From Macrostomum lignano (Eukaryota), in contig NIVC01000867.1 in assembly GCA_002269645.1 (NCBI GenBank), positions 124,001-188,000 of the forward strand: 64,000 nt of DNA. Reading direction: 5' to 3'. The notes beneath the pieces are model-generated. The model searched no databases and was not told the origin of the DNA. It saw nothing but the letters and a program-made list of their open reading frames with translations. Below are positions 27,585-29,600 of the stretch, in pieces (within the stretch, counting starts at the first letter, position 1; every line of letters begins with the position of its first letter). A program made the position numbers and the translations under genes.

Positions 27585-29600
27585 ATGGAAAAACCAATGA
27601 TATGTCCAACGGATGCGCATATCCAACCGATGATCTACAAGATACCAACCGACATCAAATGCAGCTACTTCAAGACAAACCAGACGAAGCCAAAAAGATC
27701 ACAATCGATCTCTACAAAGCCAACATCAAGAAGCATCGACAACTTGGAATCGTGTGCTTCAGAGACAAGCACCTAGTCGAAAAAATATGGCGAGGACAAT
27801 GGAACAGAATCCGATTCCGACAGCATGAGCTACATGTGTCGCACGCTGACTGCCTACGATGGAACCAGACATTGTTCTCCAAAGATGGTGTACTAGAACC
27901 TGATGAAAAGGTCGGCAACGCACAACTCTTCCGAACAAAGAATGTGGCAAACGGTCGATATGTCCACTATAATGAAAGATGGCCTGACTACACGGCACGC
28001 AACAGCTACCTAATCAGGAATGTTCCGTTCTACTACAATCCGTACGAGAAAATGGAATCACTGCAACTGCAACTAAGTGAATGCCGATACAGCGAAGGAT
28101 GGTGCCCAACGCCGATATTGCGAAATGCAGAACTCTACAGCCTACCGCTGAGTCCAACGTATCATCCAGACTATCGATGGCAGATAGTGCACAGAGCCGA
28201 TCCACACTACGAAGAGCCATCAAAGTCACGACAATATTTCTTCGCTTGGAAGGTTGAGACGGAAATCGACTGTCAACTACAAAAGTACCACACAGTGGAA
28301 GGAGGCCTACTGTCAAACACGTTTTTGGCAAAGTCAGGAGACTTGGCACTGACGTTTCAAAAGAAACCAGTCGAGCAAAAACTGAAATGCAAGGATACAG
28401 ACAAGACACTATTCATCTCGGAACAAGAGATACCAGTCTACGTAAAAGAAGACGACAAACAAACCTTTCTGGCGATCATCAACGGAACGTATCAACAGCA
28501 GGAACAACAGAACAGACGACGACGAGACATCGAACGTCCCAAACTGGTGTCAAACCGACTACTGTCAGCAAAGATAACGGCTTTGGATCATAATCTACAC
28601 AACCAGTTAAACCACTTGCATCGAACACTGGTCCAGCTAACTTGCAAAATGCACGCAATCAACTTAAATTATGCCAGACAAAACTACTATGTCAACCCTA
28701 CGATGACTTTTCGTAAAATCACCGGAATGACGAACGTTTTGGCAGTTCCAATATACGAGCATCTGTTGATATACAAGTGCACGCCGATACAGCACTTTAA
28801 CATCTTGCCGTCGAACACGTCAACAACCTGCTATGACAAGCCAAGGATTGAAGCGTTCTACGAAGGAAAACGAATTCAAGGATTCTTGGACACGGTACAC
28901 AACATCATCGTTGGCACCGCAATACCGAGACCTTGCACCACGGCAGCAAACTACTATCAACTGGACAATGCACTACACGTCATCAAAACAACTGGAACGA
29001 CAGTAAACATCACAGAACCGGAAGTAATCGTCGACGAAAACTACGACATGGATTTGAAAATCCGATTCAACAGAACGAAGTATACGCCATTCGCCGATAT
29101 CCAACTTGACGAGATAACACCAGGATGGACGATCAACGACTTCTTGCAAGCGTTCATCACCCAACGCAAGATGATTCACCAGCTGTTCACAAGAAAGGAC
29201 AAAGGAACCGAGACAGGAAGATTTCCCGTCCTTGTTTCAATGGACAGCGCCATCAAATCATTTTGGACAAACAGCTTCTGGGAACTGCTCAATGGAAGAG
29301 GCAGTCTCTATCAAGGATTCATCTTCTACGGTGCTTGCATTGTGTGGATTGTCACGGCAATCTTCATCATTTCGTCGATCGTACGGTGCTTCACTCAAAC
29401 TTGTCCAAGAGCTAAGAAGACAGTGAATGCCATAATGCAAAGAACGACAACGGAAGGCGACAACAGTTTAGAACTAACAGAAACTGCACATCGTGAGGTT
29501 CAAGGGCAACCGACACTAGCAACGCGGCTATATCCATCGATTCCGACAACACCAACGGCACCAAGAATACAACCACCCAACTATCAAGCAGAACAGCAAG
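27585..29600 (+). CDS. env: Envelope glycoprotein, class III (herpes gB-like) fusogen candidate
   Basis: Cys-rich ectodomain with N-glycosylation sequons and an RRRR furin-type site (28514-28525). gB-like segments C..NP...G..V.A...L.IYKCTPI and CYDKPRI...GFL...N.I....RPC. TM at 29315-29383. There is a frame change in the A5 run at 27692-27696. Confidence 0.8.

Follow-up and report, generated by a model that had tools for sequence, protein, structure and literature searches.

Errantiviruses with a GAG-ENV-POL gene order and an Env of the HSV/gB type are known from Nematoda, Bryozoa and Platyhelminthes. In the accessible parts of the report by Chary and Hayashi (PMC13524379), they share with the element studied here a Ty3/gypsy pol, a gB-type Env placed between gag and pol, and many near-identical intact copies. 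The same parts of that report state that the transmission mechanism of errantiviruses outside Drosophila 'remains elusive'.

In retroviruses, late domains are clustered and redundant, with PTAP and YPXL in HIV-1 p6, PPPY and LYPSL in RSV p2b, and PSAP in foamy virus (PMC3705266 and PMC7995964, in the sections available). The element carries the same motif types, also in a cluster. Retroviral late domains lie in Gag, whereas here the motifs follow the Env transmembrane (TM) helix and Gag is without them. A capsid that has no membrane-targeting signal of its own, together with glycoprotein-dependent release, is described for foamy virus and hepatitis B virus in part of one review (PMC3705266), and the element would resemble both viruses in these features. 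Both viruses differ from the element in carrying late domains in Gag or core, in having fusogens of other classes, and in using separate genes. A further case is bluetongue virus, whose NS3 is a membrane protein. NS3 contains PSAP and PPXY and so, like the element, has late domains outside a capsid or matrix protein (PMC7995964, in part), and it is the nearest precedent in the literature covered; it differs from the focal Env in being non-structural, in not being a fusogen and in belonging to an unrelated virus.

Late domains in the tail of a fusogen would be an unusual placement, because the reviews, in the parts available, place them in Gag, core or matrix-type proteins. In the literature searched, whose coverage leaves out most subscription journals, no paper describing a late domain in the Env tail of a retroelement came up. 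In the main text of PMC13524379, as far as it was available, the terms 'late domain', 'ESCRT' and 'cytoplasmic tail' do not occur and the sections deal with ectodomains. Among the text listed from its seven supplements there are no PTAP and three PSAP, and the two of these that are displayed are in nematode ectodomains. The available parts of PMC10309623, PMC4604429, PMC12801592 and PMC8278194 contain nothing on Env-tail motifs.

An env-bearing Ty3/gypsy element in Macrostomum lignano

The window analysed is a stretch of 64,000 nucleotides from Macrostomum lignano (contig NIVC01000867.1, positions 124,001 to 188,000); coordinates below count from its first letter, and the parts of the element lie on the + strand. 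The focal element is bounded by a 5' LTR of ~1,060 bp (TG...CA; 24095..25154) and a 3' LTR (33707..34766) defined by LTR-LTR alignment, and is flanked by a 4-bp target-site duplication, TTGT, within a satellite. The two LTRs differ by one mismatch in 1,059 aligned columns, and the element is young. A 12-nt primer-binding site (25157..25168) is the same as that of Platyhelminthes_Rhabditophora_Mlig_errantivirus_2, with which the element was compared by this site alone (PMC13524379, in part). Gag (25851..27527) has a CCHC knuckle at 26556 that is visible by direct reading, while its zf-CCHC profile match (E 0.074) is under the cut-off, and it continues into a long acidic spacer. Protease, RT, RNase H and integrase follow Env in that order (29609..33164), the protease starting at a conserved W-P and carrying its DSG at 29702. 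LTRs, primer-binding site, target-site duplication and pol order are those of a Ty3/gypsy LTR retrotransposon, and env is sited between gag and pol. On the available description, the focal element belongs to the gB-type errantiviruses with GAG-ENV-POL order reported by Chary and Hayashi (PMC13524379).

The window copy contains three frame changes, near 27.7, 29.85 and 30.7 kb. Intact copies elsewhere in the genome have a single open frame of about 2,460-2,870 aa, and the element is thus naturally expressed as one polyprotein. In intact relatives this runs from Gag through the signal sequence, class III fusogen, TM and tail to PR-RT-RH-IN.

Several other features of the locus were recorded. The acidic spacer that separates the Gag knuckle from the signal sequence (26900-27500) is of low complexity and differs in length among subfamilies. 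The W-P with which the protease begins (29609-29614) is shared by 9 of 10 Env families and is a candidate cleavage site. A short post-pol frame (33277-33490) starts with ATG-GGC (MG), shows by eye a RING-finger-like cysteine spacing and ends early. The insertion site is a short-unit satellite (TGTGTCACTCTCCAAT-like) spanning 22200-24094 and 34767-36200; more satellites occupy 20800-21650 and 39000-41100, and a 21-bp array starts at 47417.

Env is a class III fusogen

The earlier note took the protein upstream of the motifs to be an Env glycoprotein, and profile and fold matches agree, placing it among class III (gB/Monjiviricetes-like) fusogens. PF24664 was matched in 8 of 10 aligned Env family members (best E 1.2e-10), the window copy itself scoring under the curated cut-off. 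In a Foldseek search with an AlphaFold model that is weak overall (mean pLDDT 58), the top match was HSV-1 gB (E 3.6e-19, with TM-scores of about 0.2). Among the PDB matches listed, all top ones are herpesvirus gB, and matches to viral models include rhabdo-like or nyamivirus glycoproteins.

The ectodomain (27585..29314), with a furin-type site RRRR at 28514, is preceded by an internal signal sequence (27528..27584) predicted from hydrophobicity and position. It is followed by a predicted TM helix (29315..29383; Kyte-Doolittle mean 2.43 over 19 aa) that is helical in the model. A signal or TM segment on one side and a TM segment on the other is the arrangement of a gB-type errantivirus Env. 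The remaining ~75 aa (29384..29608) form the cytoplasmic tail and linker to the protease; model confidence is low there, and the segment is likely disordered. One Env branch (L042, L050, L061) carries a threonine-rich, mucin-like insert of 200-300 aa between basic furin-like sites (alignment columns 400-690).

A motif cluster in the tail of the focal family

Translation of 29528-29584, within the frame 27467-29860, gives LYPSIPTTPTAPRIQPPNY. As the earlier note had it, this peptide lies between the TM helix and the protease, with the helix ending at 29383 before it and the DSG coming after it. It contains LYPSI (29528..29542), an ALIX-type motif; PTAP (29552..29563), a TSG101-type motif; and PPNY (29573..29584), a PPxY motif whose x is N, T, I or G among copies. 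The focal Gag contains no P[TS]AP, PPxY or hydrophobic-YPx[LI], and its N-terminal glycine is absent too.

None of 300,000 shuffles that kept the composition of the focal tail contained the three motifs jointly. Taken one by one, the shuffle p-values were 0.015 for P[TS]AP, 0.004 for hydrophobic-YPx[LI] and 0.027 for PPxY. These tests are post hoc, the motifs having already been seen, and the real test is the comparison across families given below. Within the focal family, all three motifs are kept in 41 of 42 loci, PTAP being lost in one. The 42 are the loci whose tail fits the extraction pattern, at 39 distinct places and with the window copy included, and such counts may be inflated because the best TSG101 and ALIX matches each sit on three contigs. 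The 19 distinct focal tails all agree in 9 of 10 core columns and in 29 of 56 columns beyond the cluster (p 0.024). PPxY is kept in all 42 loci, and its columns are invariant in 3 of 3 against the same 29 of 56, a difference without statistical significance (p = 0.15).

In the database gene model P0004, the cluster is spliced out as a 99-nt, in-frame GT..AG intron (29493-29591). We set this model aside as a likely prediction artefact, its joint being unsupported in contigs of four runs.

Two of the three motifs recur across Env-bearing families

A genome search with the element gave 136 matches (136 scored of 503 candidates) at identities from 100% to 23%. Thirty loci were taken from these matches, along with 40 further stretches, and one tail per family was picked by eye for 10 families. 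Broken loci whose tail stops before the motif region (L046, L049) and frameshifted F3 copies (L052-L056) were excluded as families, and L039, a copy that has lost PTAP, lies outside the 10 chosen tails.

P[TS]AP occurs in 8 of the 10 family tails against 0.27 expected from shuffles, and [LIM]YPx[LI] in 7 against 0.05. PPxY occurs in one against 0.40 and is not enriched. An unbiased scan of four-letter patterns, in which S and T counted as one letter and I and L as another, ranked the P[TS]AP and YP patterns first (8 and 7 families), while the maximum in 1,000 null sets was 5 families. Across the same open frames, there are 8 P[TS]AP and 7 YP motifs in 772 aa of tail, and 1 and 0 in 17,765 other aa. 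The exceptions are F9 (L060), which has neither motif, F7, which is without P[TS]AP, and F3 and F5, which are without the YP motif; PTAP is also lost in the single copies L039 and L067.

These numbers bear directly on whether the motifs arose by chance in a disordered linker rich in proline and threonine. Such an account holds for PPxY across families, and for P[TS]AP and the YP motif it is refuted by the shuffles, by the family tests and by the comparison with Env-less elements described below; as an explanation of the whole cluster it is hardly credible. Motif conservation against a variable tail, the check proposed in the earlier note, is borne out for P[TS]AP and the YP motif and fails for PPxY. 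The note's picture of a cluster of all three late-domain types does not hold as a general feature: with PPxY in one tail of 10, the full set is confined to the focal family, where even within-family conservation of PPxY falls short of significance.

The families with an Env are related. In an RT tree of 29 rows, from which F8 and F9 were omitted because they have no RT, all 9 Env-bearing rows group into a single clade (99/98). Its three deep branches are 38-44% identical, and in each of them at least one family carries both motifs. Since the Env families share ancestry (one genome, one clade), the small p-values overstate independence. Motif order has changed, with YP before PTAP in the focal family and P[TS]AP before YP in the five other families that have both. 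When its motifs were masked, the focal tail aligned above chance to only 1 of the 9 other tails. From kept motifs and altered order in a drifting linker, we infer the signature of selected short linear motifs. At the level of sequence, the P[TS]AP and YP motifs are real beyond chance, and a conserved pair of putative TSG101- and ALIX-type motifs spans the whole clade. The PTAP motif is exact and conserved, and the predicted topology places it on the cytosolic side.

The YP motif may also be read differently. YxxPhi is the usual signal in Env tails, and YPSI, YPKI, YPTI and YPTL all fit it; F9, which has neither motif, carries an ordinary YVTV. The motif would then be a YxxPhi signal for endocytosis or sorting, recognised by adaptor complexes, and P[TS]AP a proline-rich element of SH3 type or a spacer in tails that are indeed proline-rich, with no part for ESCRT. 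YxxPhi requires neither a proline at Y+1 nor a hydrophobic residue at Y-1, whereas LYPxL does, and both are kept in 7 of 7 cases, the last residue being I in six and L in one. Similarly, the low expectation for P[TS]AP came from shuffles with the same proline content, which speaks against an SH3-type or spacer element. We consider a reading without ESCRT improbable. The overlap of YPx[LI] with the YxxPhi endocytosis signal nevertheless counts against the proposal of ESCRT budding from the tail.

The motif pair travels with Env

To see how the motifs relate to Env, we used 20 LTR elements of the same genome that have no env by HMM. Their stop-free stretches upstream of RT (15,081 aa) contain P[TS]AP in one element, hydrophobic-YPx[LI] in none and PPxY in four. 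Env tails differ from these elements with a Fisher p of 6e-5 each for P[TS]AP and the YP motif, families not being independent. In the pre-Env regions of 9 Env-bearing families, two of them partial (F2b, F5), P[TS]AP was found in one, the YP motif in none and PPxY in three, in the spacer before the signal sequence. The scarcity of the motifs in Env-less elements and pre-Env regions indicates that P[TS]AP and the YP motif travel with Env, in its tail. Separately, L038, L041 and L042 have no tail PPxY and carry PPPY, PPAY and PPRY in the Gag-side spacer, which may reflect a motif moving between cytosolic spacers, or chance.

This comparison also weighs on a possible origin of the linker as an old p6-like end of Gag, stranded behind the TM helix when env entered the region between nucleocapsid and protease. 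On this view splicing would join Gag, linker and Pol without env, and the motifs would work in that product. HIV-1 p6 directly precedes the protease, as the linker does here. Late domains of HIV-1 are in p6, at the end of Gag (PMC7995964, in part), and a single polyprotein needs a route to Env-free Gag. Env-less elements, however, almost never have the motifs before the protease, though the RT tree of 29 rows yielded no Env-less sister of the Env-bearing clade. Contigs of four presumed-RNA runs cover the element and contain no joint that skips env or the motif cluster, with the proviso that contigs show presence, not absence, and say nothing about expression or splicing. We regard a stranded Gag end that acts through such a product as very doubtful; the linker itself may stem from Gag or from the donor virus.

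Searches for relatives in other species returned little. A single-sequence search matched 0 of 3,148 candidates. Profile searches matched 2 of 2,255 and 2 of 5,272, none adding the tail of another species: two of the four proteins are labelled Macrostomum lignano, one is an unlabelled gene model 94% identical to the focal family, and one is an unlabelled Gag-Env fragment without a tail. Among the proteins labelled Macrostomum lignano, one is 96% identical to the focal family. A metagenome scan gave two matches, to the protease only.

Candidate host partners for the motif pair

The host encodes a TSG101 UEV domain (E 6.7e-39; E 5.5e-44 to human), an ALIX V domain that keeps the KFY segment, which we take to be the binding pocket, and HECT domains. 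Genes for TSG101, ALIX and HECT proteins are expected in any animal, so their presence does no more than remove an objection. A 2003 paper by Vincent et al. reportedly names YPXL/I as the PalA/ALIX motif in its title. Of the 12 PTAP-contact residues in the available list of PMC7650771, 9 are identical in the host UEV by hand count; Tyr63, Arg64 and Phe142 differ, Tyr63 of the human protein being His. The ALIX motif of RSV is given as LYPSL in part of PMC3705266, and LYPSI departs from it by one conservative change.

Discussion

Both the type of element and the motifs were known already. What is new, as read from these sequences, is a conserved pair of putative TSG101 and ALIX motifs in a clade-wide Env tail, and not the triple of one family. 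We think it rather probable that PTAP and LYPSI dock TSG101 and ALIX, and that ESCRT would thereby pinch off enveloped particles from the tail and not from Gag. According to the predicted topology, the internal signal sequence would anchor Gag and send the ectodomain into the ER, and the TM helix would bring the tail and Pol back to the cytosol. There the tail may tether Pol at the budding site while recruiting ESCRT-I/TSG101 and ALIX. ESCRT-III and VPS4 would then sever the neck of a bud facing away from the cytosol, at the plasma membrane or an endosome, and the protease would later free itself at the conserved W-P. PPxY would be a family-specific extra that may recruit a NEDD4-type ligase.

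The same docking could serve another end. The motifs may bind TSG101 and ALIX and sort Env-Pol into multivesicular bodies, for turnover, for down-regulation of the fusogen at the cell surface or for exosome loading, without release of Gag particles. All of the conservation data fit this equally well, and cellular membrane proteins do use such motifs, as in the late domain of E-cadherin (PMC9511404, in part); HSV gB likewise passes through multivesicular bodies via its tail (PMC7995964, in part). Against sorting stand the focal Gag, which has no late domain, and the pre-Env regions, with P[TS]AP in one of 9 (F2b and F5 partial): a budding particle would therefore need a late domain elsewhere. 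Redundant motif pairs are, moreover, typical of viral late domains, which act position-independently and are often paired (PMC7995964, in the sections available). We find sorting alone unlikely. Budding from the tail has its own difficulty, in that the polyprotein supplies Gag, Env and Pol at 1:1:1, a strange stoichiometry for particle assembly, and we found no source of excess Gag.

In a broader form of the budding proposal, an old gag-env-pol lineage would have shifted the control of budding from Gag to its class III fusogen. The tail would then combine a late domain, a substitute for matrix and a tether for Pol, such that only Env-bearing membranes bud; on this step our judgement is evenly balanced.

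Env-linked motifs of ESCRT type bear on whether the widespread invertebrate Ty3/gypsy elements that carry env leave the cell, and they provide a handle on exit besides entry. Motifs of ESCRT type accompany Env and are missing, with few exceptions, from Env-less elements, and this offers a cheaply testable idea of the exit route. If the broader proposal holds, the motif pair would offer evidence, at the level of sequence, for extracellular enveloped particles produced by gB-type errantiviruses outside insects.
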